64,000 nt of DNA from Candidatus Undinarchaeota archaeon (GTDB taxonomy: Archaea; SpSt-1190; JASMDC01). Position numbers and translations under genes: made by a program. The notes under the pieces are model-generated. The model was given only the letters and a program-made list of their open reading frames with translations. It did no database searches and had not been told where the DNA came from. The stretch spans positions 72,379 through 136,378 of the forward strand of contig CAZFHY010000010.1 of the NCBI GenBank assembly GCA_964519305.1. Reading direction: 5' to 3'. Shown here one piece after another: positions 2,173 through 42,579 of this stretch (position 1 is the first letter of the stretch; the number at the start of each line of letters is the position of its first letter).

Positions 2173-2194
2173 TGCGAGGTTCACAATGATAAGT

Positions 2195-2210
2195 TGTTAT
2201 AAAAAGTTAC
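2195..2210 (-). promoter_or_regulatory. Archaeal-type TATA box for the rnf operon
   Basis: Minus-strand TTTTTATAAC about 26 nt upstream of the rnfC ATG. Confidence 0.55.
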
Positions 2211-2260
2211 TTTTCTCCCAAGCACTTCCCGTCGGAGCGGGAACGAAGGAGTGTCTTGTC

Positions 2261-3247
2261 ATGGACCGCAAAGGAATGGTTGTAGCGCTCGTCCTGTCGG
2301 TCCTGCTGCTCCATGCCGGTTGCCAGCAGCCCCCCACCGAGATCGTGCGCAACGAGTCGCTCATGGGAACCATCGTGACCATCAAGGTGGTCCACACCGA
2401 TGGTCAGGCGGCCAACGCCTCCATCGACAAGGCCTTCGCCGAGATGCGGCGGATCGAAGCGCTGCTCACGAACACGGCAACCGATAGCGAGGTGTCCCGC
2501 CTTAATACGCAGGGGGAAGTTAAGCCAGCCAGCCCTGAGCTAATCCAGGTCTTGCGTCTCTCCGTTGAGGCCGGTGAGCTCTCGGGCGGTGCCTTCGACG
2601 TGACCGTCCAGCCGCTCCTCGACCTCTACACCCACAGCTTCCGTGACCTCAAGCGCCCTCCCACCGGGGAAGAGATCAACACCACCCTCGAGGATGTCGA
2701 CTACCGGAAGATCGAGGTCCATGACGGATGGGCCGCTATTCCCACCAACATGTCGATCACGCTGGGCGGCATCGCGAAAGGATACATCATCGACGTCGCA
2801 TTCCGTGTGCTCCAGGCCGACGGTATCGAGAACATCCTCGTCAACGCCGGAGGCGACATCCGGGCTCGGGGCAGCAACGCGCAGAGGCTACCATGGACGC
2901 TCGCCCTCCAGAACCCCCGAGAGGCCACCGATTACATCACGCGCATCCATGCGTCCGATGTTGCAGTGGCAACGAGCGGGGATTACGAGCGGTACTACGA
3001 TGCTGAGAAGAAGTTCCACCACATCGTGAACCCCACGACCGGCTATTCCGCCCTCGGCCTCATCTCCGTGACCGTCATCGCCGACGAGGCGGTTCGCGCC
3101 GACTCCCTGGCAACGTCCGTTTTCGTGATGGGTAAGGACAAGGGGCTCACCCTCATCGATTCGCTGGAAGGTGTCGAAGCACTGGTCATCACCGAGGAGC
3201 GCGATGTGTTCCGCTCGAGCGGGTTCGCTTCCCACGAGCTGCCGTGA
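2261..3247 (+). CDS. apbE: FAD:protein FMN transferase ApbE (lipoprotein)
   Basis: Lipobox LHAGC, LMGT, SEVSRLN, GAFDVTV, LGGIAKGY, VNAGGD, ATSGDYERY, HHIVNPTTG. Divergent from its likely substrate operon rnf. Confidence 0.95.
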   Translation: MDRKGMVVALVLSVLLLHAGCQQPPTEIVRNESLMGTIVTIKVVHTDGQAANASIDKAFAEMRRIEALLTNTATDSEVSRLNTQGEVKPASPELIQVLRLSVEAGELSGGAFDVTVQPLLDLYTHSFRDLKRPPTGEEINTTLEDVDYRKIEVHDGWAAIPTNMSITLGGIAKGYIIDVAFRVLQADGIENILVNAGGDIRARGSNAQRLPWTLALQNPREATDYITRIHASDVAVATSGDYERYYDAEKKFHHIVNPTTGYSALGLISVTVIADEAVRADSLATSVFVMGKDKGLTLIDSLEGVEALVITEERDVFRSSGFASHELP

Positions 3248-3251
3248 GCGG

Positions 3252-3674
3252 TCACCAGTTGTACTTGAAATAGTTGATATCCACGTGCAGGTCGCGGTCC
3301 TTCGCGTCCACGTGGAGGCCCGGCGTCTCATGTCCCCAAGGCCCGGGCCAGGACGAAGTGCTCGTCTCCACCATCCCACGTGATGCCAGTTCGTCAACGA
3401 CCTTCTCTGCCGTCCGGTAGATGTCCAGGAAGTGGTACTTCTCACCGTGTACGTACGGACCGAAGGACAGCACGCTCTCCTTGACCTTCTCCTCGAGGTC
3501 CACGAGTGTATCGTAGAGCTCTATCTCGCTCTTATCTTCCAGATCCACCGTCAATTTGCCGTCTATGGACAGTCTCACATAGTCTTGGGCCAGAGGGTTC
3601 ATTCTAGTCCGGAACAGCTCATCCCACGAGTCGCCGTCGCCATTGGAGGCACTATCTACCGGATCACCATACAT
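3252..3674 (-). CDS. Small acidic hypothetical protein, tandem paralog 3 of 3
   Basis: Aligns with its two neighbours (IELYD.L..L, Y.TA..V..EL..RG.V, GP.G, VDA.DRDL.V). TATA-like ATTTAAT upstream. Confidence 0.85.
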   Translation of the reverse strand: MYGDPVDSASNGDGDSWDELFRTRMNPLAQDYVRLSIDGKLTVDLEDKSEIELYDTLVDLEEKVKESVLSFGPYVHGEKYHFLDIYRTAEKVVDELASRGMVETSTSSWPGPWGHETPGLHVDAKDRDLHVDINYFKYNW

Positions 3675-3729
3675 GAGTGGAGTGCCCTGGTTTAGGCGAG
3701 ATTAAATACCTGCCCTTGGGATTGTCGCC

Positions 3730-4071
3730 TCATCCCAGCGAGTGTACCTCGAACCAGTCCACGACCACATGAAGGTCACGGTCATGGGCATCGACGGCGT
3801 ACCCGGGGATCGGGACGCCGTACGGTCCCTTCCGAGGTGTGGTCTCCACATCGACCAGACCCCGCTCCTCAAGCTCACCGATCACTCGAACGGCCGTCTC
3901 GTAGACCTCCTGATATCGGTACACTGCTCCCTCGCACTGGGGCTGGCACCACATCACGCTCCGCTCGACCTTCTCAGAAAGGCCGATGAGCGCGTCATAT
4001 AGCTGGATGTCTGACATATCTCCGGGATTCTCCAAATAGGAGCTCTCGAGCGGTACGACCTCTTGGACCAT
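3730..4071 (-). CDS. Small acidic hypothetical protein, tandem paralog 2 of 3
   Basis: Clear paralogy with the flanking ORFs. Confidence 0.85.
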   Translation of the reverse strand: MVQEVVPLESSYLENPGDMSDIQLYDALIGLSEKVERSVMWCQPQCEGAVYRYQEVYETAVRVIGELEERGLVDVETTPRKGPYGVPIPGYAVDAHDRDLHVVVDWFEVHSLG

Positions 4072-4096
4072 GGGTGGACCCTCCCGATCCTACTGC

Positions 4097-4432
4097 CTAC
4101 GTCCGGTCGGCGAAGTAGTCGATGTCCACCGCAAGGTCGCGGTCCTTCGCTTCTACGTGTAGTGCGAAGGTGGTCGAGCCGTACGGTCCGGGTCGCGGGG
4201 TGCGCTCAACGTCCACTAGTTCCCTGGTCTCCAGCTCTCCGACCAGCTTGTTGGTCGCGCCGTAGACCTCCTGGAAGTGGTAGACCGAGCCGCCTGCCCG
4301 CGGATTGAGCAGCATCACGCTCTGCTCCATGATGCCGGGAAGCTCGTTCAACATATCGAAGAGCTCGACGTCGCTGTAGGAGGTAAGATCTCCCGTGTAC
4401 GCGGCGTCGAGGTGGAGGACCTCTTGGTACAT
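4097..4432 (-). CDS. Small acidic hypothetical protein, tandem paralog 1 of 3
   Basis: Clear paralogy. TTTATTAA box about 26 nt upstream. Confidence 0.85.
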   Translation of the reverse strand: MYQEVLHLDAAYTGDLTSYSDVELFDMLNELPGIMEQSVMLLNPRAGGSVYHFQEVYGATNKLVGELETRELVDVERTPRPGPYGSTTFALHVEAKDRDLAVDIDYFADRT

Positions 4433-4566
4433 GGATATCCCGCTGCCCCCAGGTCGGTTAATAAACGTTGCCTTTGCGGACGAGCATGATATCTGAGTGC
4501 ACGGATTGGGAGACGCATGCGTTTCTTTAAAAGGTTACTACTGACCAATGGTAACGTTTATATATC

Positions 4567-5193
4567 ATGCCCGACTACAATATCACGATGGGGCCGACAT
4601 TCCTTGATGGTGTGTCCGATGGCTATAGCGCTGTCAAGGAGAAGGTCGCCGATAACTACCACAATCATCCGGGCACATACAAGGCCGTGGGGACCGTGGC
4701 CGCGGGCGTGGGGGCCTACCTCCTTGCCAAGGAGGGCATGGACGCCATGGGATTCCAGGAGTATCTGGCCAACAGCATGCCCTGGCTCGGCCATTACGCT
4801 GATGCTGTCGCCAACGGCACCGCTGGTGTGCTCGCCGCCCTTGGGGCCAAGGCCCCTGTGGAGAAGACCATAAAGTACCTCGATGGCCAGCGGAAGCACG
4901 AGAAGGGCACGTATGCCGCTGACGCCAGCGAGAGCGGTGCCAAGGAGGTCGCGGAGGAGATCATCGAGGGGATGGACGGCACGGACCTCGGGTGCGCCGC
5001 CCTCGGTATGCCCGTGGGGCTCACCGACATGAAAGAGCTCTACGATGGCGTGAAGTCGGACTACCAGAAGAACCACGGCAAGGGTGTCTCGTACAAGGAG
5101 AAGGATCCAATCTTCGACGAGAATATCCTCGGTGCCAACCCGGCACCGTACCACGTGTTCACAAAGGAGAAGAGCGGGAAGTCCGCACCGTGA
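4567..5193 (+). CDS. Hypothetical protein with two Ala/Gly-rich hydrophobic segments
   Basis: 208-aa ORF with typical codon usage. TTTATATAT box at about 4557 suggests the true start may be 4588. Confidence 0.7.
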   Translation: MPDYNITMGPTFLDGVSDGYSAVKEKVADNYHNHPGTYKAVGTVAAGVGAYLLAKEGMDAMGFQEYLANSMPWLGHYADAVANGTAGVLAALGAKAPVEKTIKYLDGQRKHEKGTYAADASESGAKEVAEEIIEGMDGTDLGCAALGMPVGLTDMKELYDGVKSDYQKNHGKGVSYKEKDPIFDENILGANPAPYHVFTKEKSGKSAP

Positions 5194-5202
5194 GCCCGAC
5201 CA

Positions 5203-6534
5203 CTACTTATCTAGCACCTGCTCGGCATCGTCCATCATCTCGATGAACCAGAGCACGGCAGGAAGGTTGTTATCGACAACGTCGTCGATCTCATCCTCGT
5301 CGGGATTGAACTGGGTGAATGTGTTGCCCCACCCTCCACCGCCTTCCAGCTCAACGGTGTAGGCGAGCATCCCCTTGGAGTCCGCCCAGTCCGTGTAGGT
5401 GCCGCTGGCCAGCGCCGTGCGACCACCGTGGAGCACGTCGTAGGCCCGCTCCATGCGCTCGCTCATCCCATTGCCAATAGCGCGGTAGAGCTCCTCGCGT
5501 TCGCCATCCTCGGTGGTGTGGTCGGGAGCGTACTGGTATTCCCCGCCATAGGAGTGGAACGCCAGCGTTCCCTTGAAATCATGCTCGGCCACGAACTCGG
5601 CCATGGCCTTGGCCTCAGGCTCGCTCATGGCCTCGGGGCCACGGTAGGTCTGGTGCCAGTAGTTACCGCTCGCACCCGGTTTGCCCCAGGCCTCCGAGAA
5701 GTTGCGATTTAGGTCAACTCCGTGGAGAGAGGATGATTTCTCGGCCCAGGTCCCCTCCTCGACGAGCTCACTGTGGTCGCGGGCGGTCTTGCGGTGGTCC
5801 GAGTCACCGTACCGCCGCACCTGCTCGGCCACGATCATCCCGCCATCGGGATTGACGCTCGGGATTATCCATGTGTCCCTGCCGTCAACAAGCTGGGTGA
5901 TGTAGGCGTCCTTACCATAGCCGTCGACCATCGCCTTCGCCACGTCGAGTGGTACCTCCACAGCGATGGCCTCCCGGGCATGGAACTGTCCTACCAGCAG
6001 CACTTCGGTCCGCGACTCGCGGTCCTTCACACGAGCATCGCTGCCGATTCGTATCGCGTAGATGGGATTGCCGAGCCCGCTCTTTCCGATTATCTCGACA
6101 TGGGCTAGGTCGGGCGCCTTCTTCTCGAGGGCGTACAGTTCCTCTGCGACCTCCTCGGGAACGTGGTACTTGCCCAATCCCCCGTCCCTTAGCGGAGAAT
6201 CGGTGGGTATACGCTGCCAGGACCGGACGTACTGTCCCTGTTCGATGTATTTCTCAAGGGCATCGTCACGGTCGTAGGCGCCCCCTTCAGCGGGAAGCAC
6301 CATCTCCTTGGGAAGCCGTACCTCGTAATCGCCGACATCGATCCGGTAGTCGTCCCCCAGCTCGTGCTCCAGCAGTTCCTGGTGGGCGGGAGGCGTCGTG
6401 GCCGGATGGTCCGCCGCATACGCTATCGGTGCGAGAGAAGTAATGGCCGTGGCGCCGAGGACGGCATAGGTAGCGGCGCGCTTCACCACACGGGCGAGCA
6501 CACCCTCACCATCGCCGTCCCCGGCTTCTTCCAC
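5203..6534 (-). CDS. M14 zinc carboxypeptidase (carboxypeptidase T-like), exported or anchored
   Basis: HARE zinc motif, IIPSVNPDG, HRK, GVDLNRNF, YRGPEAMSEPE, FHSYG and catalytic VEL. N-terminal hydrophobic helix. Confidence 0.93.
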   Translation of the reverse strand: MEEAGDGDGEGVLARVVKRAATYAVLGATAITSLAPIAYAADHPATTPPAHQELLEHELGDDYRIDVGDYEVRLPKEMVLPAEGGAYDRDDALEKYIEQGQYVRSWQRIPTDSPLRDGGLGKYHVPEEVAEELYALEKKAPDLAHVEIIGKSGLGNPIYAIRIGSDARVKDRESRTEVLLVGQFHAREAIAVEVPLDVAKAMVDGYGKDAYITQLVDGRDTWIIPSVNPDGGMIVAEQVRRYGDSDHRKTARDHSELVEEGTWAEKSSSLHGVDLNRNFSEAWGKPGASGNYWHQTYRGPEAMSEPEAKAMAEFVAEHDFKGTLAFHSYGGEYQYAPDHTTEDGEREELYRAIGNGMSERMERAYDVLHGGRTALASGTYTDWADSKGMLAYTVELEGGGGWGNTFTQFNPDEDEIDDVVDNNLPAVLWFIEMMDDAEQVLDK

Positions 6535-6579
6535 GGCCTAAGTCCCCTGTTTCCCTTTATTCCCCTTTCAGATCGGACC

Positions 6580-8280
6580 TTACTCGTCGTCCCAGAAGGT
6601 CTCGAGCTCGTCCGTTTTGTTGGTGACAACCCACTCGTTCGCCGAGACCTCTTCGAGGTGGTACCCGTTCTTGCCGAACCGGGATACCTCCACCTTGTCC
6701 TGGCCGTCATCCAGCTTCCAGAGCTCTTTCTCTCCCATGGCCTTGATGCTCTTGACCACGGGGATGAAGTCCTTGATGCGGCGCTTGTGGGTTAGGTCGA
6801 CGGTCTCCTCTTCGGAGCCGTTGTGTTTGATGTACAGATCACCATCGTTGAAGGCGACGGAGTAGTGGTTGTCGTCCTCCCTGACGATCTTACCCTGTTC
6901 ACCCTTGAACGACACTTCCCAACCGGAGTCGAATATGTACCGGTCACCATCATGGATGAAGGCAGTGCCCTCGATGGTGGTCTTGACCTCGGGCTTCTCG
7001 TTGTAGAGCGAGAAGAGGAAGTTGGAACCCACCCAGAGGGCGGCGCCGGCGGCGGCCACAGGCACGCTTGAGACGGGCCAGGCCTTGGTGGCGGCCACAG
7101 TGCCCGAATAGGTACCAAGATAGATGCCGCTGCCGATGGACGACTCTACGCCCATGATCTGCCAGAAGTTCTCCGAGTAGTCGTCGTGCTCATGCTCCTT
7201 CTTGTTGATGAGCTGGTCGTGGATGGCGATGTTGGCCTTGCCGCTCATGACACCGGAGATAGCGCTGGCCACGGTTGCCGCGCCGTATATACCGATGAAC
7301 GCATAGCCGGGGTTCTCTCCGAAGCGCTTGAGGATGTCAGGGTGGAGGGCGAAGTAGCTGGCGCCGGTGACGGTGCCTAGTCCGGCCGTGTAGAGGTTGA
7401 CCTTCTTTAGCGCCTCCATGGGCTTTTCGGAGTTGACGGCGTTGTCGACAACACTCCCCAGTACGCTCTCTCCGAGGATACTGAGCGCGGGGCTGCCGAT
7501 GTTACCGATCGAGGTGATTGTGCTGGCGATACCGTAGGCGGCGCCCTGCTCCCACAGCTTGGGCGTGATGACGCCCAAGAGCATGGCAGCACCGACGTTC
7601 CCCATCAGGTCACCGACCTTCAGGACGGCGTACTCGGGATCCTCCTTGAACAGTCGGTAGAACACCTTGAACTTGTCCATGAAGGACTTCTCATCCATCT
7701 GGTACATCTCAAGGGAGAGGTCGTCAGGGATGCCAAAGAAGCTCTTGAAGTCCTCGTTGAAACCGAACTCCTCGAACTCCACGGTCTCTTTGAGGTTGAA
7801 GCCGTTCTCCTTGAGGTACTCCTTGAGGCCAGGATCAGCATCATCGGGGACCGGCAGTTTCTTGGTGCCGATCAGCGAGCCGAAGAACTTACCTTCGCCC
7901 CGTTCGGTGATGACCTCGGTGCGGTATGCCATGGCCGGGTGGAAGGCAGGGTCCTTGACGTCGTACGCCGTGAAGACAGCGTCCTTGCCGGCGGCCGCAG
8001 CGGCACGGTAGGCGTCCACATGGATGCCCTCCTCGTCGGTGTGGTACACCACGGAGAACCGCGCGCCATCGTACCCGGCGTTCACCAGATCGATGTACTG
8101 CTCCTCAATCCCGAAGTTGGCCTTCGCGAACTCGATATTGTTCGGGTTCAGTTGGAACTCGTCGTACTGCGTTCCCGCTACGAAGAGCGGGTTCGCATCG
8201 AGCTTGCGAGTAAAGATCTCAGAGGCAGTGTTGTTCTCCTCATGAAAATCCTCTTCGGAGAGGACTGCTGCATCATACAT
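6580..8280 (-). CDS. Hypothetical membrane protein: about six central TM helices (half-MFS-like) between soluble domains
   Basis: Long ORF with a hydrophobic central block. Start set at ATG 8280 from the TTTTTAAA box at about 8305-8313. Confidence 0.65.
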   Translation of the reverse strand: MYDAAVLSEEDFHEENNTASEIFTRKLDANPLFVAGTQYDEFQLNPNNIEFAKANFGIEEQYIDLVNAGYDGARFSVVYHTDEEGIHVDAYRAAAAAGKDAVFTAYDVKDPAFHPAMAYRTEVITERGEGKFFGSLIGTKKLPVPDDADPGLKEYLKENGFNLKETVEFEEFGFNEDFKSFFGIPDDLSLEMYQMDEKSFMDKFKVFYRLFKEDPEYAVLKVGDLMGNVGAAMLLGVITPKLWEQGAAYGIASTITSIGNIGSPALSILGESVLGSVVDNAVNSEKPMEALKKVNLYTAGLGTVTGASYFALHPDILKRFGENPGYAFIGIYGAATVASAISGVMSGKANIAIHDQLINKKEHEHDDYSENFWQIMGVESSIGSGIYLGTYSGTVAATKAWPVSSVPVAAAGAALWVGSNFLFSLYNEKPEVKTTIEGTAFIHDGDRYIFDSGWEVSFKGEQGKIVREDDNHYSVAFNDGDLYIKHNGSEEETVDLTHKRRIKDFIPVVKSIKAMGEKELWKLDDGQDKVEVSRFGKNGYHLEEVSANEWVVTNKTDELETFWDDE

Positions 8281-8478
8281 GAAGGCCACGGGCACCATCG
8301 ACGGTTTAAAAAAGGTTTTCCTACGCGAACCGGAAAACTCGTGTGTCACTACCGCAGAGACACACCACAAATCGCGAAAAGGAAAGGCATTATCACCCGG
8401 AATAGGGTGGTTCGCGAATGTCCGGCCAGAACCGGAATAAGGTGTCACCCGCGAGTAGGAACAAAAGGGAGGGGATAT

Positions 8479-10941
8479 CTAGGCGGTCGCCTCAGCGCCC
8501 TCAGGCGCTCCCTCGCTCGACGTCTCATCCTCTTTCTTCGTGATCTGGAAGTGGAAGAGAGACCTCGTCGACTGCCAGCGGATCCCGCTCTGCATCCCCT
8601 GGTACATGTTGAACGCCTCGGTCTGGTACTCGATGAACGGGTCCTTCTGAGCATAGGCCCTAAGGTGTACACCGCGCTTCATCTCATCCATACCCAGGAG
8701 GTGGTCCTTCCACGACATGTCAGCAGAGTGCAGAAGGACCTGTCGCTCCACCTGTCGGATGACATCCGTCCCTATCTCGGCCTCGCGTTCGTGGTAGCGT
8801 CGCATGGCCTCGTTCGTGAGGTTCTCGGTCAGCTCGTCAGCGTTCTTGACCGAGGCCACGTTGAGGTCGGCCACGTCGATGCCGAAGAGCGCCTGACAGT
8901 TATACGCGAACTGCTTCTGAAGGAACTCGTTCTCCCACTGGTGGGGCTTGGGGCCCTCGGCGGCGAACGATTCCACGACCTCCTCTGCCGTCCGCTCGAT
9001 GACGTTGTACACGTCCTGCTGCAGGTCAGGCCGCTCGAGGATGACGTTGCGGTCCTCGTAGAAGATCTCCCGCTGCGTGTTCATGACCTCGTCGTACTTC
9101 AGCAGGTTCTTGCGCATCTCGAAGTGCATGCCCTCGACCTTGACTTGGGCTTGTCGGACGACCTTGTCGATGAGCTTGCCCGACAGCGGCTCGTCCTTGT
9201 GGGCGCCTGAGAAGTACTTCTCCATGTTCTCCGGTCCGTAGAACCGTAGAAGTTCGTCCTCAGCGGACAGGTAGAACCGGCAGGAACCAGGATCTCCCTG
9301 GCGACCCTCGCGTCCCAGGAGCTGGTCGTCGATGCGACGCGAGTCGTGGCGCTCGGTGCCGATGACATGGAGACCTCCGATGTCGGCCACGCCTTCTCCG
9401 AGCTTGATGTCGGTACCGCGACCGGCCATGTTAGTGGCGACGGTCACTGCACCCTTCTGCCCGGCCCGGCCAATTATGTCGGCCTCCTGCTTATGGTGTT
9501 TGGCGTGGAGCACCTGGTGGTCGATGCCGCGGGCGATGAGCATATCGCTCAGGTGCTCGGACACATCGATGGAACGGGTGCCAACGAGCACGGGGCGGCC
9601 TGCCTCGTGCTGGGCCACGATGTCGTCAACGATCGCGTCGTACTTCTCCTCGGCTGTGCGGTACACCAGGTCGGGCTGGATGTCCCGCTGCATGGGCTCG
9701 TTCGTCGGTATCTGGGAGACGTCCATGCCATAGAGGGAGATGAACTCGCCCTCCTCGGTCTTTGCGGTCCCGGTCATGCCCGAGACGCGGTCGTACATCC
9801 GGAAGAAGTTGGGGAACGTGATGGAAGCGTAGGTCTGGGAAGGCTCGCGGACCTTCATTTCGGTCTTCCCGGTGGCTAGAAGGTCGTTGTTGGCCTCTTT
9901 CGCCTCCAGGGCCTCGTGCAGCCCGGCCTCGTACCGCCTGCCGTGCATGAGGCGACCGGTGAACTCGTCGACGATTAGCAGCTCACCGTCCGAGACTACG
10001 TAGTTCTTGTCCTTTGTGAAGAGCGAGTGGGCGGCGATGCACTGGCGTGCCGAGTGGTAGAGATGCATGGTCCGCTCGTCCGTGGGCGAGTCCACCCCGA
10101 GGGCCTTGGCCAGCTTGTCATCCCCGCGCTCCGTGAAGAATACGATATGGTCCTTCTCGTGCACCTCATAGTCGCGCCCGGGTTCGAAGTCGCGGACGAT
10201 ACGGTCCATGATGAGGTACTCGCGGGCAGAGGTGCCCGTGCGTCCAGAGATGATGAGAGGAGTTCTCCCCTCGTCGATGAGGATGGAGTCGACCTCGTCG
10301 ATGATAGCATAATGCATGCCCCGCATGACCCGGTCCTCGGGCCGGCGGACCATGTTGTCTTTGAGATGGTCGAATCCGAACTCGTTGTTCGTCCCGTAGG
10401 TGATGTCCGACTGGTATGCCGCCCTGCGGTCCTCGGGGGACTGGTCGTGCTGGATGGTACCGACGGACATCCCCATGAACTCGTAGACCGGAGCCATCTC
10501 CTCGGCGTCGCGACCGGCCAGATAATCGTTGGCGGTGATGACGTGGACGCCCTTTCCTTCCAATGCATGGAGGTACCCGGAGAGGGTCGCCACCAGTGTC
10601 TTGCCCTCACCGGTCTGCATCTCGGCGATGCGGCCCTCGTGGAGGATCACGCCGCCCTTGACCTGGACGTCGTAATGGCGCATCCCGGTCACGCGGCTGC
10701 TCGCCTCGCGCACAGCAGCATAGGCCTCGGGCATGAGGTCGTCCAGGCTCTCGCCCTCCGCGTATCTATCCCGGAACTCGTTGGTCTTGCCTGCGAGCTC
10801 CTCGTCCGAGAGTGCCGCCATCTCGTCAGCGTAACCGTTGACCTCATCGACGATGTCGTCCAGACGCCGCTGCTCGCGATGGCTGTAGGAGAAGAAGGAC
10901 TTCACGCCGTCGTAGAATCGATCGAGCAACCCGTCCTCCAT
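8479..10941 (-). CDS. secA: Preprotein translocase ATPase SecA (no C-terminal zinc finger)
   Basis: MQTGEGKT, YGTNNEFGFD, IIDEVDSILIDE, VDEFTGR, GMTGTAKTE, ATNMAGRGTDI, GRQGDPG, YAQKDP. Confidence 0.97.
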   Translation of the reverse strand: MEDGLLDRFYDGVKSFFSYSHREQRRLDDIVDEVNGYADEMAALSDEELAGKTNEFRDRYAEGESLDDLMPEAYAAVREASSRVTGMRHYDVQVKGGVILHEGRIAEMQTGEGKTLVATLSGYLHALEGKGVHVITANDYLAGRDAEEMAPVYEFMGMSVGTIQHDQSPEDRRAAYQSDITYGTNNEFGFDHLKDNMVRRPEDRVMRGMHYAIIDEVDSILIDEGRTPLIISGRTGTSAREYLIMDRIVRDFEPGRDYEVHEKDHIVFFTERGDDKLAKALGVDSPTDERTMHLYHSARQCIAAHSLFTKDKNYVVSDGELLIVDEFTGRLMHGRRYEAGLHEALEAKEANNDLLATGKTEMKVREPSQTYASITFPNFFRMYDRVSGMTGTAKTEEGEFISLYGMDVSQIPTNEPMQRDIQPDLVYRTAEEKYDAIVDDIVAQHEAGRPVLVGTRSIDVSEHLSDMLIARGIDHQVLHAKHHKQEADIIGRAGQKGAVTVATNMAGRGTDIKLGEGVADIGGLHVIGTERHDSRRIDDQLLGREGRQGDPGSCRFYLSAEDELLRFYGPENMEKYFSGAHKDEPLSGKLIDKVVRQAQVKVEGMHFEMRKNLLKYDEVMNTQREIFYEDRNVILERPDLQQDVYNVIERTAEEVVESFAAEGPKPHQWENEFLQKQFAYNCQALFGIDVADLNVASVKNADELTENLTNEAMRRYHEREAEIGTDVIRQVERQVLLHSADMSWKDHLLGMDEMKRGVHLRAYAQKDPFIEYQTEAFNMYQGMQSGIRWQSTRSLFHFQITKKEDETSSEGAPEGAEATA

Positions 10942-10965
10942 CAAGTTGGCCTCGGCCCCGTACGG

Positions 10966-10982
10966 CCTTAATAAAGGTTTCT
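10966..10982 (-). promoter_or_regulatory. BRE/TATA promoter of secA
   Basis: Minus-strand AAACCTTTATTAA ending 27 nt upstream of the ATG at 10941. Confidence 0.6.
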
Positions 10983-11016
10983 CTGCGGGGGACTGGAAAA
11001 CGGCATACGTAGGTCC

Positions 11017-11640
11017 TCACCCCCCCAGAATCGGCTGGACGTCCGACACCTTATCGAACGCGTACCCACCATCCTCGGGGCCCCAGACCTGTTCGTCTCG
11101 CTCGTTGTAACCCCGGTCCCAGGCGTACATCCCGCTCTCGTCGATGACAAGCTCGGTCGTGGCGTACACGGCCCCGCCATAGCTGTTCTCGCACTCCTTG
11201 CCCCGGGTACCACCCACGAAGGCGTCGTTCTCCCGGTGGAGGTAGACGACGTTCCCGCGGAAGCCCTCCAGGTCATCGGTTGTGAGGTCGCGGGCCAGCC
11301 TACCGTCCTCCCATGTGCCGACGAGCTCCTCGCCGTCCCGGATGCGGTAGATGTGGCTCTCGAGGGTACCGTCATCACCGGAAGTCAGCCGGTACGCCCG
11401 CTGACGGTAGGGGGAGCCCTCCATTCCGGCCATGGCCTGCTCGACGTAGACCCAGTGGTCACTGTCGCTACCACCCTCTACCTCGATGGGGAGCATCTTG
11501 AGGCGGATGTCGTAGTAGCTGGGGTCCTTTTCGGACTGTCGCTGGCTGGAGAACTCGCCCGTCATCCACGCATGGAGCGTGTCGAGGTCGTTCCTCCCTT
11601 CGTTCACTTCAGGCACCATGGTCCCGATATTCCGTGCCAC
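11017..11640 (-). CDS. CpcT/CpeT family (bilin chromophore lyase-like) protein
   Basis: WMTGEFSS..Q, WVYVEQA, PYRQRAYRL, FVGGT.GKEC, YATTE, WDRGY, QVWG. Confidence 0.88.
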   Translation of the reverse strand: MARNIGTMVPEVNEGRNDLDTLHAWMTGEFSSQRQSEKDPSYYDIRLKMLPIEVEGGSDSDHWVYVEQAMAGMEGSPYRQRAYRLTSGDDGTLESHIYRIRDGEELVGTWEDGRLARDLTTDDLEGFRGNVVYLHRENDAFVGGTRGKECENSYGGAVYATTELVIDESGMYAWDRGYNERDEQVWGPEDGGYAFDKVSDVQPILGG

Positions 11641-11644
11641 TCGA

Positions 11645-12025
11645 TCAGAACCTTATCCTGAAGAGCGGGACCGCATGCGGGGCCCGGGGGTCGCTGTCCC
11701 ACCTGTAGACTTCCAGGTCCACGCCGGGCGACTCGCCCCTAGTGATATCGAGGTCCACTCCGATGCCCTCTTGTGGCATGTTGTCCATGTCGATCGTCTC
11801 GAGGTCGCTGGCATACACCGGGGCCTCGGCCTTCTCGACATAGGTGTTCGTCTCTTGCGTCATTACGCTCCCGGCCATGGCACCGACGCCCACCAGGAGA
11901 CCGGCCGCAAGAGCACCTCCGGCCAGACCGTAGGTGGAAAGGTCGTCTGCCGCAGTATATCCGTCGGCCATCACCGCCGAGGCGGTTCCGGTCGTCTCAA
12001 GTTCTTCCATGTACATCATGATCAC
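11645..12025 (-). CDS. Small single-pass membrane protein with conserved acidic leader
   Basis: ELETTG..DGYTAADDL leader, Gly-rich TM helix and short acidic domain. GGAGTGA RBS at the start. Confidence 0.8.
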   Translation of the reverse strand: MIMMYMEELETTGTASAVMADGYTAADDLSTYGLAGGALAAGLLVGVGAMAGSVMTQETNTYVEKAEAPVYASDLETIDMDNMPQEGIGVDLDITRGESPGVDLEVYRWDSDPRAPHAVPLFRIRF

Positions 12026-12062
12026 TCCTTTCAGTTCTTACAGTATGATATCGTTCGCGGCC

Positions 12063-12602
12063 TCATCGGATACGGAAGTCGAATCCGGGGATACGGATCC
12101 GGATGTCAACATCGCTCTGCTCGTAGGAGGGGTGGCTGTCAGGGGCCAAAGGGTCCGAACCGAACCCGAGCTCGTCCATGTCGGTGTAGCCGTCGTGATC
12201 GGTGTCGAACCAGTTCGGGTCCGTACCGAGCTCCATGACCTCAACACGGTCACTGATGCCGTCAGCGTCGGAGTCCCATTCCAACGTGCTCGTCCTGTAC
12301 ACACTGAGCTCCTTCGAGTCAGCGAGGCCGTCGTTGTCCGCGTCGGGTACGCCCCGGGCGTAGTCCATGCTGTCGATGAGCCCATCGCCGTCAGTGTCGG
12401 CGCTGAAGGGGTTGTTCCCGGTGACGATATCCTTGGCGGTCGAGTAGCCATCCTTGTCGAAGTCTACCGCGAGCACACCCGTGAGGGCGCCCACGGCTCC
12501 CAGGAGGGCGAGCCCCCGACCGTCCATATCGTCCGTGCTGCTGTATGCGTCGGCGGCCGATGCGCCGTAGCTTCCGTTCGTCTCAAGCTCGTATGCGATC
12601 AT
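12063..12602 (-). CDS. Membrane-anchored protein with DxDxDG calcium-binding (TSP3-like) repeats and conserved acidic leader
   Basis: Start MIAYELE at ATG 12602. Repeats DFDKDG, DTDGDGL, DADNDGL, DSDADGI, DTDHDGY. Confidence 0.85.
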   Translation of the reverse strand: MIAYELETNGSYGASAADAYSSTDDMDGRGLALLGAVGALTGVLAVDFDKDGYSTAKDIVTGNNPFSADTDGDGLIDSMDYARGVPDADNDGLADSKELSVYRTSTLEWDSDADGISDRVEVMELGTDPNWFDTDHDGYTDMDELGFGSDPLAPDSHPSYEQSDVDIRIRIPGFDFRIR

Positions 12603-12752
12603 GTCCGGCCCTGCCCCTTGTCCCCTTTTTATACCTTTCTTTGGTATACCTAATATATTGGGACTGCCTAATATATAGGGCTCTGAGCACAGCTTACCGA
12701 CATACACAGTAATGTTAGGGGATACGAATACATGCAGAGCCGATGAACGGCA

Positions 12753-13724
12753 TCATGCGTCTTCGGAGAGGGCCCAGCACCGGTCGAAGTACTCGATGAG
12801 CACCGGGATCAGAACGTTGCCTGTGGAGCTATGCCACCAGGGAGCGTCGTCGCCAAGCTCCACATCGATGAACGGCAGGCCCTCGGCCTTGAAGGCCAGA
12901 TCCCGAACACGCCCTTCGGCCATCGAATCGCCTGAGATCACCAGCTCACCATCCCCCCATGAGACAGATGCCCGCTTGACGGGGAAGTCGATCTCAATGA
13001 AGGGGAGCACCGGACGCTTCTCCGCGATGTAATAGGTCGCCGAGGCGGGCTCGTGGATTTCGTTGTCGTATTTCACGTCGAATACCTCGGTCACCCTGCC
13101 CTTCGGCCCGCGATACAGGAACGACATGGACATGTGCGAGTCGCCATCCCGATCCCTGAATAAGTGATGGAACTCGTGGACCGTGAAGGAACCCTTGGTA
13201 TAGCTGGTCGCCCGTAGGGGGACCGCTGGGTGATTCACCAGGTTCTGGACTAGGGGTACACCCAGAGCAGGATGGCGCTCAAGGCCTCGTGCCACTTTCT
13301 CCGGATCACGGAGCCGCCAGCGCGCATAGGATGGCTGGGCGGCGTGCCGCAGCTTGAATGTGACGTCGTAACCATATATCCCATCGGTCTCGTCGTCCAC
13401 GGCGACCAGATAGTGATGATAGGGCGATGGGAACACGGTGCGCTCCTCGACCAGATATGCGTTCTCGATGCCCGCGGCCTTGGCGAGCGAGAGCCAGACC
13501 AGGGATTGCTCAAGGCAGTTCCCCTCGCCTTGGGCAACGCACTCTTCCACTGAGCGGAGCCGGTACGGATCATCTGTCTTCAGCAGCTCCTCGTAGCCGT
13601 ATTGGACGTTCTCCAAGACCCAGTCGTAGATGATATCTGCCTTCTCCCCATCGTCCATGTCCTGTGTAACAAGGGATTCGATGATTGGTTTGACTGACTC
13701 GGGATCCAGGTACTGTCCGTCCAA
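12753..13724 (-). CDS. Transglutaminase-like (papain-fold) domain protein
   Basis: IYDWV..NVQY, GEGNCLEQSLVWLSLAKAAGI, then HY and YDVT, consistent with a Cys-His-Asp triad. Confidence 0.82.
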   Translation of the reverse strand: MDGQYLDPESVKPIIESLVTQDMDDGEKADIIYDWVLENVQYGYEELLKTDDPYRLRSVEECVAQGEGNCLEQSLVWLSLAKAAGIENAYLVEERTVFPSPYHHYLVAVDDETDGIYGYDVTFKLRHAAQPSYARWRLRDPEKVARGLERHPALGVPLVQNLVNHPAVPLRATSYTKGSFTVHEFHHLFRDRDGDSHMSMSFLYRGPKGRVTEVFDVKYDNEIHEPASATYYIAEKRPVLPFIEIDFPVKRASVSWGDGELVISGDSMAEGRVRDLAFKAEGLPFIDVELGDDAPWWHSSTGNVLIPVLIEYFDRCWALSEDA

Positions 13725-13881
13725 GGCGGTCTTAAAAATTTAGGCGTGCTTAATAATATTCCCTTTGGACACGTCGACTGTGTTCTGGTGCTCAAGGAAA
13801 AGTTTAAGTATGCCTAACTTAGGTGGCCCTAACTCAAACCGCAAGGAACGCGGACCGGATGATTATCGAAGGTGATCTGAA

Positions 13882-14337
13882 ATGTTCGAAATGGAACTCG
13901 AGTCGGAAGGGTACGGTGCTACCAACACCACGCAGGCCTATGGACAGGTGGATGACCTGAACCTCAGGGGTGCCGCCGTGGGTGCAGCTATCGGGGGTGC
14001 CGTCGGATTTGGCATGGCAGGCCTCGCCGGTTACGGCCTGGCAAACCACATCAGTGATCACTATCTTCAGGACGTCGGCCCTCTGCCGCAAGTGCTCCTT
14101 GAGGTGGACGCTACCATCGCCGGCCTCTACGTGCTCGGCGTGCCATTCGCTATCGGTGGCGCGCTGACCGCTGGTGCAGCCGGTGCTACCTCCACCCTAT
14201 TCAGGGGCGAGGAGGAGGCACCTAACGATGGTGCGGCCTACGACTGGAACGGTGAGCAGGACCTCGACCGTGTCCCCCTCCGGCGCCAGGTACGGTACAC
14301 GTATCCTCGCAGAGACGCGAACGAACTGGACTGGTAA
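13882..14337 (+). CDS. Membrane protein with conserved acidic leader and two Gly-zipper helices
   Basis: ELESEG..QAYGQVDDL leader, GxxxG-rich helices and an AGGTGA RBS. Confidence 0.8.
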   Translation: MFEMELESEGYGATNTTQAYGQVDDLNLRGAAVGAAIGGAVGFGMAGLAGYGLANHISDHYLQDVGPLPQVLLEVDATIAGLYVLGVPFAIGGALTAGAAGATSTLFRGEEEAPNDGAAYDWNGEQDLDRVPLRRQVRYTYPRRDANELDW

Positions 14338-14347
14338 CGGGATACCT

Positions 14348-15901
14348 GTGTACGAGCCCGAAGGGGACGGACAGTTGGAGGAGAGGCCTGAGGACGGAGA
14401 GAATCCGGTCGGGCAAGTCCTTACCTACCAGAACCCTATCGACTATACGGTCACACATGACCTATTATCGCAGGATCCCGCATACTGTATGATGACGTTC
14501 GAGATGTATCGGCCCCTGTCGGACGCGCTGGGCTTCCCGATCGCCAGCGATATGACACTCAGTGCCACGTACCATCCTGATCCATATGATCCGCCCCCGG
14601 GACAATCCCTTACTTTCGACCGCGTCACCCTCGCTAAGAAGCCTGGGGCCGCATGGCTCACCCCTGTGGACCTGGACGGTGACGGGTACGACGAACTGGT
14701 GCTCTCCACCCTCTTCGAAGGGCTCGCAGTGGCCATCCCCCCTATCGGGAACGGAGGGGCGTACATACTCTCAAGAGATGGCGGAGCATCGACGGACGAC
14801 TCCATCGGCCAGTGGTCGGTCGATCCGCTCTTCACGCCCAAGGACGGGATCGGCTTCCCGAACAGTCCGGTCCTCATGGATGTGGACAACGACGGTGTGG
14901 AGGACATAGTGGTCCCGTGCGGTTTCCTCCTAAAACCAACCGGTCGGATCGTGTGGATGAAGGGCGAACCGGTCGACGGTCAGCTCACCTACGGCCCACC
15001 ACAGGACATCCCCATCCCGGACAGCTCCCGCTGGTACCATGCCATCGTACCGGCGGACCTCACCGGCAATGGCCGTATGGACTTCGTCACCACCAACCAC
15101 GACGGAACGCTCCTATCCCCGGGCACCAGCAAGGTGGAATGGTTCGAGAACGTGGGCGGTCCTGGTGAGGCCAGGTTCGTCCACCACCATATCGCGGATA
15201 GGGGCGGATCCCACCTTGCCCTCTACGATATGACCGGTAATGGTAAACAGGACATCATCCTCCCCCAATACTTCGATGGCCCGTCGCTCATATGGCTCGA
15301 ACAGCCCGATACTCCCGACAGTGACTGGAAGGAGCACGTCATCAACGACACCACCGGTAGAGGATTCGGGATCGAGGTCGTCGATATCGATGGTGACGGT
15401 AGACCGGAACTTGTCTACGGCAACCACAACCACCAAGGTGCAGCCGATCCCGCTCACCGGACCATGGGTGTGTACTGGTTCGATATCCCCGCCCCCTCCG
15501 AGGTCCGCGACCTCAATAACTGGGACGACCATATGCATGTAGTCCATGAGGGTTTCCATGTCCGTGCCCGGGATCCCAATGCCAACGCCGCTCCAGGGGT
15601 CGTGCACGTGGGGGACGTCACCGGGAACGGTAGGATGGACATCACCGTGTCAGGTGACGGGGACGACGGGCTTTACATATTCACACAGCAGGACGACGGC
15701 ACTTTCGAGAAGGTTGTTGTCGATCGTCAGCCCATGTCCGGCGACCATCACCTGATGGACGTCAACGGGGATGGACGGATGGACGTGGTATGGACCGTGT
15801 TCGGGGAGGTCGGCCTCCGCGGCCCGCGTTCAATGGTGTACGCCTACATCCAGAAAGAGAACGGACAAGCAGACAATGAAAAGAGTAGTGACAAGGAGTG
15901 A
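14348..15901 (+). CDS. FG-GAP/VCBS repeat beta-propeller protein
   Basis: Seven D-x-[DT]-[GN]-[DN]-G-x-x-[DE] blade motifs (DLDGDGYDE, DVDNDGVED, DLTGNGRMD, DMTGNGKQD, DIDGDGRPE, DVTGNGRMD, DVNGDGRMD). Start placed at the in-frame GTG 14348. Confidence 0.88.
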   Translation: MYEPEGDGQLEERPEDGENPVGQVLTYQNPIDYTVTHDLLSQDPAYCMMTFEMYRPLSDALGFPIASDMTLSATYHPDPYDPPPGQSLTFDRVTLAKKPGAAWLTPVDLDGDGYDELVLSTLFEGLAVAIPPIGNGGAYILSRDGGASTDDSIGQWSVDPLFTPKDGIGFPNSPVLMDVDNDGVEDIVVPCGFLLKPTGRIVWMKGEPVDGQLTYGPPQDIPIPDSSRWYHAIVPADLTGNGRMDFVTTNHDGTLLSPGTSKVEWFENVGGPGEARFVHHHIADRGGSHLALYDMTGNGKQDIILPQYFDGPSLIWLEQPDTPDSDWKEHVINDTTGRGFGIEVVDIDGDGRPELVYGNHNHQGAADPAHRTMGVYWFDIPAPSEVRDLNNWDDHMHVVHEGFHVRARDPNANAAPGVVHVGDVTGNGRMDITVSGDGDDGLYIFTQQDDGTFEKVVVDRQPMSGDHHLMDVNGDGRMDVVWTVFGEVGLRGPRSMVYAYIQKENGQADNEKSSDKE

Positions 15902-15904
15902 TAC

Positions 15905-16666
15905 ATGATGGAGACCGAAGACATGCTCACTAATGATACGAAAAAGACCGGGATTGACACACAAACGGTGTTGGGGGACCCTCGGGCGGCCAGGTTCGTG
16001 GAGGACCTTGTGCTGTACTCGAAGCACACGTTAGATCCATCATTGCTCGAGTTGGATGGAGGTTCGCGATCAGCAGAGGGCCTCCCGCCGGTCAACGAGA
16101 GCAACATCGTAGAGCTCATCGAGTTCTACCGCATGGACCCAGAGCGGGTTAACGGTTTCTTCGAATCCCTGTACGAGGCCCATGAGGGCGATCCGGATGC
16201 CCGGGGTTACCTCCACGCTGCGTACGGCATCGTGGGCGGGAAGGCCGGGCAGGTCGACCGGATAGAGATGCGGTACAAGGAAGGGGTTGAACAGCTGCTC
16301 CGTCAGTATGACAGCGAGCTCACCGAGATCATCGACTGGATGGACAACATGGACAGCAGGAGCCCCTATCTCGGCCTGCTGACCGGTGTTAGCGCGAGCA
16401 CTGTGTTCGGGTACATCACCGATCATGGAGCGGGAGTGACCGCTGCCGTTGCCGCAGGTCTGGCCCTTGGAGGAACGCTCCTGGGATACATGATCCCCCA
16501 CGCTTGGGGCAACCACCGCATAGCTGTCGGCTGGAAGCGCATCACGTCAGAGACCGAGCGAATCGACGGACAGTTCTGCGAGCGAAGAGAAGAGCTCTAC
16601 GAGCGTGCCGTAGAGAACATCGGTCAACTCCGGGGCGAGTACGACCTCGAAGAGATTATCTGCTGA
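15905..16666 (+). CDS. Hypothetical helical protein with a hydrophobic hairpin
   Basis: 253-aa ORF with GGAGTGA RBS and two adjacent Gly/Ala-rich TM segments. Confidence 0.75.
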   Translation: MMETEDMLTNDTKKTGIDTQTVLGDPRAARFVEDLVLYSKHTLDPSLLELDGGSRSAEGLPPVNESNIVELIEFYRMDPERVNGFFESLYEAHEGDPDARGYLHAAYGIVGGKAGQVDRIEMRYKEGVEQLLRQYDSELTEIIDWMDNMDSRSPYLGLLTGVSASTVFGYITDHGAGVTAAVAAGLALGGTLLGYMIPHAWGNHRIAVGWKRITSETERIDGQFCERREELYERAVENIGQLRGEYDLEEIIC

Positions 16667-16672
16667 GCCGGC

Positions 16673-17476
16673 CTAGATGCCATCCCCTCTCTCGGCCTCC
16701 TTCAGCTTCTTGAAGTAGGTCCAGCTCGTCTCGTTGGGCGTTGTGAAGGTGTCAGGTGCGTGCTCGAACTTCGGCGCCTGTGCGCGCACTTCGTCCTTTA
16801 TGCGCTGTGGGAGGTCCTCGAAGCCACATTCCAGCTTGTGGCCCCGACAGTGGTACACCAGCTGTCCTGGCCGATCGCCCATGCCCATCCAGGGCAGCCA
16901 CTGTCCCGTCCGCGTCCAGCTGAACGTCATGGGTACGCTGTCCAAGTCATCGTTCTCCAGCTCGTCCTTTCGCACGATGAAGTTGAACAGCTCGGCCGAC
17001 TCGTACATGTCGCTCTGGGCGTTGTCAGGGTACTCGTCGCGGGTGAGGGGCGAGGGATAGCGGAGGAACATCTCCGCATGCCAGGCGACGTCATCCCCCA
17101 GGTCTGTGGTGGGCACCTTGAAGTAGGTCTCTCCAAACTCCATGTTCACGGGATCGTTCCACACATGGACCACGTCCTCCCGCCGGCCGGTGTAGGGATT
17201 GCTCCACGTATCAAGGAGCTCATCGGTGTGCGGATCGTAGTAGAAGGACACCTCGCGGGTGAGCAGCTGGTAGACGCCGTTCACCTTCTCGACGCGGGCG
17301 ATGTTGTACCCCTCGAAGTGGAAGAGACGATCGGCTGTCATGTCAGGACGCTTGGCATAGACCTCACCCGACCAGTAGGTGACGACCTCGCTGCCGTCGA
17401 GAGATGCCCGTGTGCGCAGGAAGTCGTGGAGGTTCCCTGCTGAACCCTCAAGGTCATAGTGGTCCATCGCGTCCAT
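16673..17476 (-). CDS. DUF1838-like protein
   Basis: YWSGEVY, LFHFEGYN, REVSFYYDP, W.NPYTG, VHVWNDPVN, WTR...WLPWMGMG, recalled as the DUF1838 pattern. Confidence 0.8.
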   Translation of the reverse strand: MDAMDHYDLEGSAGNLHDFLRTRASLDGSEVVTYWSGEVYAKRPDMTADRLFHFEGYNIARVEKVNGVYQLLTREVSFYYDPHTDELLDTWSNPYTGRREDVVHVWNDPVNMEFGETYFKVPTTDLGDDVAWHAEMFLRYPSPLTRDEYPDNAQSDMYESAELFNFIVRKDELENDDLDSVPMTFSWTRTGQWLPWMGMGDRPGQLVYHCRGHKLECGFEDLPQRIKDEVRAQAPKFEHAPDTFTTPNETSWTYFKKLKEAERGDGI

Positions 17477-17477
17477 C

Positions 17478-18293
17478 TCAGAGCAGTTCCTCGAGCGTTC
17501 GCGGCATGTCGTTCAGGAGGTCGTCCATACTGATGCTCTCCCAGGTCACCCGCTCGGCCACGTAGCCGTAACCGATGCCGTAAGCGTGGTACGACGCGTT
17601 CAGGGCCGTTGCGACCGCATCCATATCGATCACACCACTGGCCAGCGTCTCGCGTGCGGCCATAAGCTCTCGCACCGCAGGACGTCGATCCCGCTCGCCC
17701 CATGCCAGACGCTCCTCGAAGGCAGTTTCGGCGAACTCGGCCCCTGCGGGTAGCTCCGTGGCGCGCGCCCGGAACATGTTGGTCGCCATGTACTCTGCCT
17801 GCCCCTCAAGTGCGGCGAGGACAGGTACAGCATCGATGAGGGAGCGGATGTAGTCGCCATGGGTCTCGTCCCGTTGCCGGGCCAGCTCCTTCTGGAGCCC
17901 CGCGCCGATGAGCGCGCCGTGGTTCGCCTGGTAGGCATGGACGAGCTCGTGAGCGAGCACGTACACCAGCTCGCCATCCTGCTCAGGATCAGTGAGGTCC
18001 GGTGTTACGACACGGTCCGATATGAGCACCCGGTGGTTCAGGTCGTCGTACATACCTTTGTTGCCATGGTAATGTACCGCGGCGTCATGGATGGTCGCCT
18101 CATCGGCCTCTACACCCAGGTGATCGCAGATATCACGGGCCAATCCTTCATACACGGCAACATCGGCGATGACCACTTCCGGTAGCGGGCCGAAAGCGAT
18201 CCCGAACTCATCCTCGTAAGCGGTGACTATGTCATCCATAAGCGAATCGTAGGCATCCACGACAGGACGCCCGTCCCTTTCAATGTCGTACAT
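17478..18293 (-). CDS. Zincin-type metalloprotease
   Basis: LAHELVHAYQ (HExxH) with downstream LEGQAEY as third ligand. Confidence 0.82.
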   Translation of the reverse strand: MYDIERDGRPVVDAYDSLMDDIVTAYEDEFGIAFGPLPEVVIADVAVYEGLARDICDHLGVEADEATIHDAAVHYHGNKGMYDDLNHRVLISDRVVTPDLTDPEQDGELVYVLAHELVHAYQANHGALIGAGLQKELARQRDETHGDYIRSLIDAVPVLAALEGQAEYMATNMFRARATELPAGAEFAETAFEERLAWGERDRRPAVRELMAARETLASGVIDMDAVATALNASYHAYGIGYGYVAERVTWESISMDDLLNDMPRTLEELL

Positions 18294-18362
18294 GTCGCAG
18301 GTAAATTTAGGCTTACCTTATATTCGTTACTATTCTGTACAAGAATCGCTCCGGAAGATCCC

Positions 18363-23023: not shown

Positions 23024-23122
23024 CCGCCCATCACCACCGCGCATTCCTTTATAAAACGAAGGAGAGAGAACGCACGTCGGCCCCCCCTCTCCGTGTCCCC
23101 CTTCATCGTTAACCATTCATCA

Positions 23123-27079: not shown

Positions 27080-27082
27080 CGA

Positions 27083-42578: not shown

Positions 42579-42579
42579 C

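Follow-up and report, generated by a model that had tools for sequence, protein, structure and literature searches.

A long-resident bacterial-type SecA in an archaeal genome with a Sec61-like export channel

The stretch of DNA analyzed here, 64 kb in length and referred to as the window (G000:C10:72379-136378, where G000 is the host genome), contains a gene for the SecA ATPase. Coordinates are those of the window unless another contig is named. Passages in three reviews describe archaea as having no SecA homolog or describe its presence as unclear (PMC13673990, 2026; PMC6098224, 2018; PMC7613921, 2022), and passages in two of them describe the energy source of archaeal post-translational Sec export as unidentified (PMC6098224, PMC7613921). 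The locus raises the questions of whether the gene encodes a genuine SecA, whether it belongs to an archaeon, and with which partner it would work there. The analysis identified an ordinary member of the SecA family in an unprecedented cellular setting.

The coding sequence and its functional parts were located by a Pfam scan and by alignment with bacterial SecA.

8479..10944, minus strand: coding sequence of SecA, giving 821 aa when read from the TTG start and 820 aa when read from the ATG at 10941 (the next codon)
9904..10227, minus strand: preprotein cross-linking domain (PPXD, aa 240-347), within nucleotide-binding domain 1 (NBD1); Pfam PF01043 SecA_PP_bind, E = 1.3e-31
10597..10620, minus strand: Walker A / motif I, MQTGEGKT (aa 109-116), from the alignment with bacterial SecA
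9295..9324, minus strand: motif VI, QLLGREGRQG (aa 541-550), with R543L and the arginines of GR..GR retained
8638..8667, minus strand: tip of the two-helix finger, HLRAYAQKDP (aa 760-769), with Tyr764, from the alignment

The SecA_DEAD domain (PF07517) was matched at aa 16-401 with an E value of 7e-120, and matches were also obtained for NBD2 with motifs V and VI (P-loop_SecA, PF21090) and for the helical scaffold/wing domain (SecA_SW, PF07516, aa 586-800). The alignment showed MQTGEGKT, the DEVD Walker B motif (IIDEVDSIL), MTGTA, TNMAGRGTDI, and GREGRQGD to be intact. The tip tyrosine of the two-helix finger is important in SecA, and the corresponding residue is Tyr764 in the window protein and Phe in a second copy encoded on contig C36. 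The best solved relative was the SecA of B. subtilis (alignment over aa 17-798, 762 bits). The window protein exceeded the cut-offs of the NCBIfam SecA equivalogs (NF009538, 1000.7 bits vs 814; TIGR00963, 932.5 vs 800) and remained under those of all SecA2 models (TIGR04397, 854.6 < 1085; TIGR03714, 764.6 < 930; NF012136, 647.7 < 1100; TIGR04221, 579.4 < 725). No match to the C-terminal zinc finger SEC-C (PF02810) was obtained in the window SecA. This domain is carried by most of the listed bacterial SecA matches; because some bacterial SecAs are also without it (e.g., the Effusibacillus and Dialister rows), it is not a defining feature of SecA. On these sequence grounds, the window gene is a genuine, full-length bacterial-type SecA ATPase, which agrees with the first-pass annotation of an 820-aa SecA (821 aa if TTG is the start) with all helicase motifs and no zinc finger.

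This SecA belongs to an archaeal chromosome, and its locus is assembled reliably. G000 comprises 3.63 Mb on 42 contigs and is 99.8% complete, with an estimated contamination of 4.3%. Its sole small-subunit ribosomal RNA scored 1508 bits with the archaeal model vs 1157 with the bacterial model. On contig C10, genes for MCM, aIF-1A, RIO1, topoisomerase VI B and A, KsgA, DUF655, Rpo4, and L21e are located at 14.6-27.4 kb, and these archaeal core genes are 53-68 kb away from SecA at 80.9-83.3 kb. A separately deposited and named contig of a metagenome-assembled genome (MAG) of the same genus (L013), whose SecA is identical to that of the genome G001, is colinear with window positions 1630-11019, 18360-22921, and 27083-30359, covering SecA and both flanks. 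Window positions 11019-18360 (7.3 kb) and 22921-27083 are missing in L013. A same-genus relative carries the NCBI label Candidatus Undinarchaeales.

Genomes of this genus measure 3.6-3.8 Mb (G000 and G001), compared with 0.6-1.2 Mb, DPANN-like, for the 15 other genomes of the phylum in the collection. The NCBI labels of the relatives conflict (Undinarchaeales vs Methanopyri), and a genus with such large genomes reflects either great genome expansion or a misplaced lineage. The runs holding DNA of the locus are marine; a salt-in halophile, considered on account of the acidic proteins, was ruled out by this marine origin and by a median predicted isoelectric point of 5.5.

The second SecA copy (C36:3068-5542, 824 aa) shares 62.7% sequence identity with the window protein. 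The C36 protein scored 977.2 bits with NF009538 and 920.4 bits with TIGR00963, above the SecA cut-offs, and was under the cut-offs of all four SecA2 models. Its identity to P0003, the bacterial SecA nearest to the window copy, is 50.6%. The identity between the two copies was lowest in the substrate-facing domains (PPXD 55%, HWD 38%, and finger 48%), compared with 74-80% in the motor domains, and the same gradient of divergence was observed between these SecAs and ordinary bacterial SecA. The best bacterial identity to the window SecA was 53% in a word-indexed search of 5.8 billion proteins, and it was at most 55% among the 150 representatives listed from an exhaustive HMMER search (36,291 proteins at E <= 0.001). 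A quick LG+G4 tree was calculated from 66 rows, comprising the two own copies, 11 loci, 14 of 120 word-search matches picked by name, and 39 of 78 representatives <= 1000 aa. The five archaeal SecA rows formed one clade (SH-aLRT 100), in which the C36 copy was sister to three C10-type lineages. The neighbor of the clade was a long-branched SecA of Armatimonadota (SH-aLRT 89), whereas the best pairwise matches were from Bacillota and Desulfobacterota.

The window gene and its L013 ortholog of the sister species were compared over 821 codons, giving a ratio of nonsynonymous to synonymous divergence (dN/dS) of 0.076 (dN 0.037 and dS 0.49). Block identity between the species was 96.5% for PPXD (aa 233-375), 96.4% for the scaffold helix, 96.9% for the finger (aa 736-800), and 89.0% for NBD1a; because the first three are better conserved than NBD1a, selection appears to act on the translocation-specific parts and not on the ATPase core alone. 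Three species-level lineages have uninterrupted SecA frames, and the duplicate has been retained. Among 565 genes of at least 500 aa, the window and C36 copies rank at the 95th and 99th percentiles, respectively, in host-preferred synonymous codons, and their G+C contents at third codon positions, 0.85 and 0.93, exceed the median of 0.75. The SecA pair shows host-adapted codon use and strong purifying selection, and its ancestry points to a single entry long ago from a bacterial donor, followed by duplication and fixation.

The upstream region of the gene contains a candidate promoter element.

10970..10982, minus strand: TATA-like box, A-rich on its upstream side, AAACCTTTATTAA; TTTATT begins at position -31 relative to the TTG and -34 relative to the ATG

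Genome-wide promoter positions were surveyed with an open reading frame (ORF) caller of our own, which is crude; of the 2985 ORFs called, 939 with an ATG start and an upstream spacer of at least 50 nt were kept. In these genes, the A+T fraction climbs from ~0.45 to 0.57-0.62 at -35..-25 (0.50 at -32), and the starts of TTTAWW peak at -32..-28, with 16-25 genes per position vs ~1-6 further upstream. As read from composition and motif position, this is the pattern of archaeal TATA boxes before leaderless or near-leaderless genes. SecA accordingly appears to lie behind a host-type TATA element placed as in other G000 genes. By manual count, 78 of the 80 nt upstream of the SecA ATG match L013, compared with 89% across the coding sequence. 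In the C36 copy, TTAAAAAA lies ~34 nt ahead of the GTG start. Both the BRE/TATA-like element of the first-pass annotation, whose feature extended to 10982 and so included it, and the neighbor-like codon style described there were recovered in these genome-wide comparisons. The archaeal core genes on the contig, the low dN/dS, the single clade, the codon use, and the promoter all uphold the view of a bacterial-type SecA that is long resident and maintained in an archaeal genome.

Given such a SecA, the question becomes which channel it could serve. One SecY was found in the 3.63 Mb of G000, and no SecY2 or accessory Sec gene set was found there. The SecY gene is part of an operon for ribosomal proteins that includes S4e, L32e, and L19e (neighbors recognized by eye from their N-termini, without a Pfam scan), and its product matches archaeal SecY structures at E values of 1e-113 and 1e-103. 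Sec61-beta and SecD/SecF are also present. Of the two partners suggested in the first-pass annotation, the archaeal SecY with Sec61-beta stands as the sole available channel, while nothing points to the translocon of a partner cell; at 3.6 Mb and 99.8% completeness, G000 is not a reduced symbiont genome.

The SecY protein (G000:C25:29880-31469; L027:7880-9469) has an insertion of ~70 aa (aa ~330-400) with two cysteines just before transmembrane segment 8. Among 41 genomes, the insertion is present in G000 and G001 only, which are the two SecA-bearing genomes. It presumably lies on the outer face, by homology to the SecY of M. jannaschii. In an AlphaFold model of SecY (mean pLDDT 73), the channel was modeled well and the insertion (333-400) was below 50. 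A complex prediction with cut chains (SecA 215-821 and SecY 200-529), run without controls, scored 0.01 against a mark of 0.32 and counts neither way.

We infer, as the probable though not assured role of this protein, that SecA powers post-translational export through the archaeal SecYE-beta. As in bacteria, the PPXD clamp of SecA would capture secretory proteins during or after their synthesis, and SecA would dock on the cytoplasmic face of the cell's sole channel, the Sec61-like SecY-SecE-Sec61beta. The two-helix finger would then push the chain through the channel using ATP, and SecDF would assist this hybrid translocase. A protein-degrading, secretion-heavy archaeon would in this way gain a post-translational export motor of a kind not known from other archaea. 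We are evenly divided on the fuller proposal of a hybrid translocase with two diverged SecA copies, in which the 11-aa PPXD-stem insertion, Q378P, N480H, R543L, and the acidic N-terminus in SecA, together with R261K, G446N, and the ~70-aa insertion in SecY, would be mutual adaptations.

The changes in SecA were defined against 234 bacterial SecAs, which remained from 268 fetched proteins after removing those of at least 1100 aa and counting P0001 and P0002 as archaeal. Bacterial conservation reaches 90% or more in 224 alignment columns, and both archaeal copies keep the conserved residue in 194 of them. The four substitutions named in the first-pass annotation (QLLGR, VLHAK, ITFPN, and GLHEA) proved to be real, rare among the bacterial SecAs, and present in both copies. 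GLHEA corresponds to Q344E, where Q is found in 226/234 bacterial SecAs. Further changes common to both archaeal copies are N126H, E368P, D422I/A, R195K, and K386R, and both copies also contain an insertion.

9859..9891, minus strand: 11-aa insertion in the PPXD stem (aa 352-362), present in both archaeal copies

The insertion columns are occupied in one of the 234 bacterial SecAs, by an insert of unrelated sequence. Along with the insertion, the substitutions Q344E, E368P, and Q378P fall within or beside the PPXD stem. The changes in the PPXD stem and motif VI and the acidic N-terminus may be adaptations to a foreign channel, membrane, or signal peptides.

Several of these observations also weigh against export through SecY. 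Three of the substitutions shared by both copies affect residues that are nearly or fully invariant in bacteria, namely Q378P (ITFPN; Q in 234/234), N480H (VLHAK; N in 234/234), and R543L (QLLGR, motif VI; R in 226/234), and the coupling of SecA could therefore be altered. The N-terminal segment anchors bacterial SecA to anionic lipids; the N-terminal 20 residues of the window SecA have a net charge of -2, whereas the bacterial segments are 0 or positive in 159 of the 169 rows with a segment of 12-40 residues, mostly 0 to +3. The docking of SecA on SecY evolved with bacterial SecY, and the SecY of G000 is only remotely like the bacterial protein (E ~1e-7). In its cytoplasmic loops, the lineage-specific changes at positions conserved in relatives are just R261K and G446N. 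The first-pass annotation had pointed to these loops for SecA-docking residues; the two changes are there, and the sequences give no clear sign of co-adaptation of the loops to SecA. SecB was unmatched and SecG had no match over the cut-off in G000, while bacterial control genomes were positive; the same holds for bacterial YidC, Lgt, and Lsp, for which no match was obtained. The missing SecB, YidC, Lgt, Lsp, and SecG imply that no hidden bacterial genome is in the bin and that SecA arrived without the rest of the bacterial export set. Finally, no RNA run is among the 20 runs listed for the locus.

Much of the same evidence would suit a functional SecA that is reused apart from SecY, as a cytosolic or ribosome-associated chaperone or holdase, a membrane-insertion helper, or an RNA/protein ATPase. 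Q378P, N480H, and R543L with the PPXD-stem insertion, the acidic N-terminus, the missing SecG and SecB, and the distant archaeal-type SecY with few loop changes all favor such a role, and a possible partner is encoded immediately downstream.

6580..8448, minus strand: ORF of 622 aa with hydrophobic stretches, beginning 30 nt after SecA and colinear in the sister species

This protein has no Pfam family, and the best score of an atlas search was 0.83, which is under the useful range. It is possible that it is an operon partner of SecA; however, three distant paralogs are encoded elsewhere in G000, none beside a SecA. A role apart from SecY is also opposed by the 96-97% conservation across species of the parts that serve translocation only (PPXD, scaffold helix, and finger with its tip Tyr/Phe) and by the retained SecA equivalog score. 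We consider this explanation unlikely, although it is the alternative to which we give the most weight.

The first-pass annotation had favored an accessory, SecA2-like motor for the acidic-leader proteins around the gene. The leader family itself is real. The pattern (~M..DLETxGY......GY...DDL, then a Gly/Ala-rich membrane helix) had 23 matches, one of which was judged false, leaving 22 otherwise different proteins, vs 0 matches to internal and 1 to reversed controls, and the leader may be a sorting or anchoring signal. Two leader genes lie directly upstream of SecA, the gene that follows the C36 copy encodes a protein that begins with an acidic segment and a membrane helix, though without the leader motif, and the two SecA copies differ most in PPXD, HWD, and finger, so that one copy might specialize in DLETxGY...DDL leader proteins. 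However, the same domain gradient separates these copies from ordinary bacterial SecA, both copies score above the cut-offs of the housekeeping SecA models and reach none of the four SecA2 cut-offs, and SecY2 was not found. The leader genes are spread over 12 contigs, with four of the 22 in the window (11645-12025, 12063-12707, 45545-46603, and 56285-57535, all on the minus strand) and 18 on C1, C3, C5, C7, C8, C9, C11, C12, C14, C16, and C20, and the SecA-adjacent pair sits in the 7.3-kb stretch missing in the sister species. In addition, SecA prefers basic, not acidic, N-regions of signal peptides. Nothing ties the leader family to SecA, and we regard the accessory motor as distinctly improbable. 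The 7.3-kb stretch also encodes, directly upstream of SecA, a CpeT/CpcT-family protein (11017-11640, minus strand; PF06206, E = 1.6e-40), whose family is known for the phycobiliprotein lyases of cyanobacteria.

A far smaller probability is given to an artefact in which the SecA of a bacterium entered the assembly by contamination or in a chimeric contig. The 42 contigs, the 4.3% contamination, the short C36 contig of just 8 kb, and a break of the per-run contigs within the gene could be taken in its favor. The Logan contigs of runs X3 and X5 span 4159-10298 and 10276-21000+ with 0 differences and cross both gene borders at equal depths (39 and 37; 35.9 and 33.6). These runs are possibly the source samples and represent an independent assembly, not independent data. 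The sole Logan break is a 37-nt unitig at 10269-10305 with a doubled depth of 77, and its 37-mer has exactly one other occurrence in G000, inside the C36 SecA copy; the assembly breaks inside SecA because this word is common to both genes, and the depth suggests that the two copies are equally abundant. Run X9, from another study, contains 90-95% similar pieces over window positions 5170-10875. The C10-type SecA cluster is found in several collections on contigs up to 258 kb with the NCBI labels 'Candidatus Undinarchaeales archaeon' and 'Methanopyri archaeon', contigs up to 32.5 kb carry the C36 type, and paralogs of the C36 genes, with identities of 50-78%, are encoded on large contigs of G000. 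The archaeal core genes on the same contig, the colinear sister species, the single archaeal SecY, the lack of bacterial YidC, Lgt, Lsp, or SecB matches in 3.6 Mb, and a nearest bacterial SecA about 53-55% identical in two very large searches complete the case, and the artefact is largely refuted. The bacterial or chimeric contig that had been considered at annotation is inconsistent with these archaeal markers and with the equal depth over the borders.

A recent, silent, or decaying transfer without function, for which the lack of an RNA run among the 20 listed could be cited, is just as remote and is refuted as to age and selection by the dN/dS of 0.076 at a dS of 0.49, the intact frames in three lineages, the retained duplicate, the host codons at the 95th-99th percentile, the conserved promoter, the separate archaeal clade, and a divergence of ~47% or more from the bacterial SecAs found. 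Jointly, the artefact and the silent transfer account for only a very small part of the probability.

SecA working through the archaeal SecYE-beta would resemble several known systems in part. The housekeeping bacterial SecA (B. subtilis, PDB 1M6N, 1TF5, and 3JV2; with SecY, 5EUL and 6ITC) has the same four-domain build and ATPase motifs. The archaeal SecA differs from it in the Sec61-like SecYE-beta as host channel, with SecG and SecB not found, in its archaeal TATA-type promoter, and in its lack of a zinc finger, its 11-aa insertion, Q378P, N480H, R543L, and its acidic N-terminus. Accessory SecA2 (C. difficile, 6SXH; mycobacterial, 4UAQ) likewise occurs as one of two paralogs per genome and has no zinc finger, and the C. 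difficile SecA2 is a strong structural relative of the window SecA (730 bits). However, the archaeal copies are nearest to each other, outside any SecA2 clade, and under the SecA2 cut-offs, and no SecY2 or accessory Sec set was found. Chloroplast cpSecA is a SecA in a non-bacterial cell after gene transfer, which came with the endosymbiont and keeps a bacterial-type cpSecY/E, whereas the gene in the archaeon arrived by itself and its product encounters a channel of the Sec61 type. Eukaryotic Sec61 with Sec62/63 and BiP has to solve the same problem, in which completed chains must cross a Sec61-type channel; BiP acts by pulling on the far side, while SecA would push from the cytoplasm.

The window also encodes many likely substrates of such a motor. 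Among them are two long proteins (1318 and 1883 aa) whose N-termini look like classical signal peptides, together with five proteases of the clostripain family and an M14 peptidase whose N-terminus resembles an export signal.

5203..6534, minus strand: M14 zinc carboxypeptidase (Pfam PF00246, E = 1.8e-52), the next gene downstream, colinear in the sister species

The five clostripain-family (peptidase C11) paralogs are clustered at 32921-34570, 38112-39659, 39668-41149, 41160-42683, and 44073-45554, all on the minus strand, and the cluster is flanked by transglutaminase-like proteins. N-termini were read at the called starts for three of them (38112, 39668, and 44073), and each has an acidic segment ahead of a membrane helix. 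Very large proteins (976-2224 aa) are encoded in runs at 20186-23116, 23123-27079, and 27083-32734 of the window, all on the minus strand, and at C10:31514-48757; several have signal-peptide-like N-termini, and the gene for the 1318-aa protein is missing in the sister species. An operon for an Rnf-like membrane complex (RnfB/A/E/G, then RnfC and an ApbE-like protein; N-termini judged by eye, without a Pfam scan) occupies C10:69471-72164 and window positions 853-3247.

Within the phylum, a SecA_DEAD match of SecA strength was obtained in two of 17 genomes (G000 and G001). At E <= 1e-30, no SecA_DEAD match was found in the sampled genomes of four other archaeal phyla (0/2, 0/133, 0/5, and 0/401; 0/541 in total). 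SecA candidates in G005 and G007 were rejected, as the SecA_DEAD matches of ~35 bits in frames of 1186-1461 aa were gone at E 1e-10. No report of SecA in Undinarchaeota, DPANN, or other archaea was found in titles and abstracts, and supplementary files might mention one; automatic database annotations of these MAG proteins as SecA already exist.

The general question of how archaeal export is energized is not solved by this finding, since, of the archaeal genomes searched, those of this genus alone contained SecA. Two SecA genes kept beside an archaeal channel are nevertheless a clear exception to a domain-level rule and amount to a natural experiment on the compatibility of a bacterial push motor with a Sec61-type channel. 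If export through SecYE-beta is the true role, a cytoplasmic export ATPase would have been identified in an archaeon for the first time, and the organism would offer a ready-made test of SecA on a Sec61-like channel.

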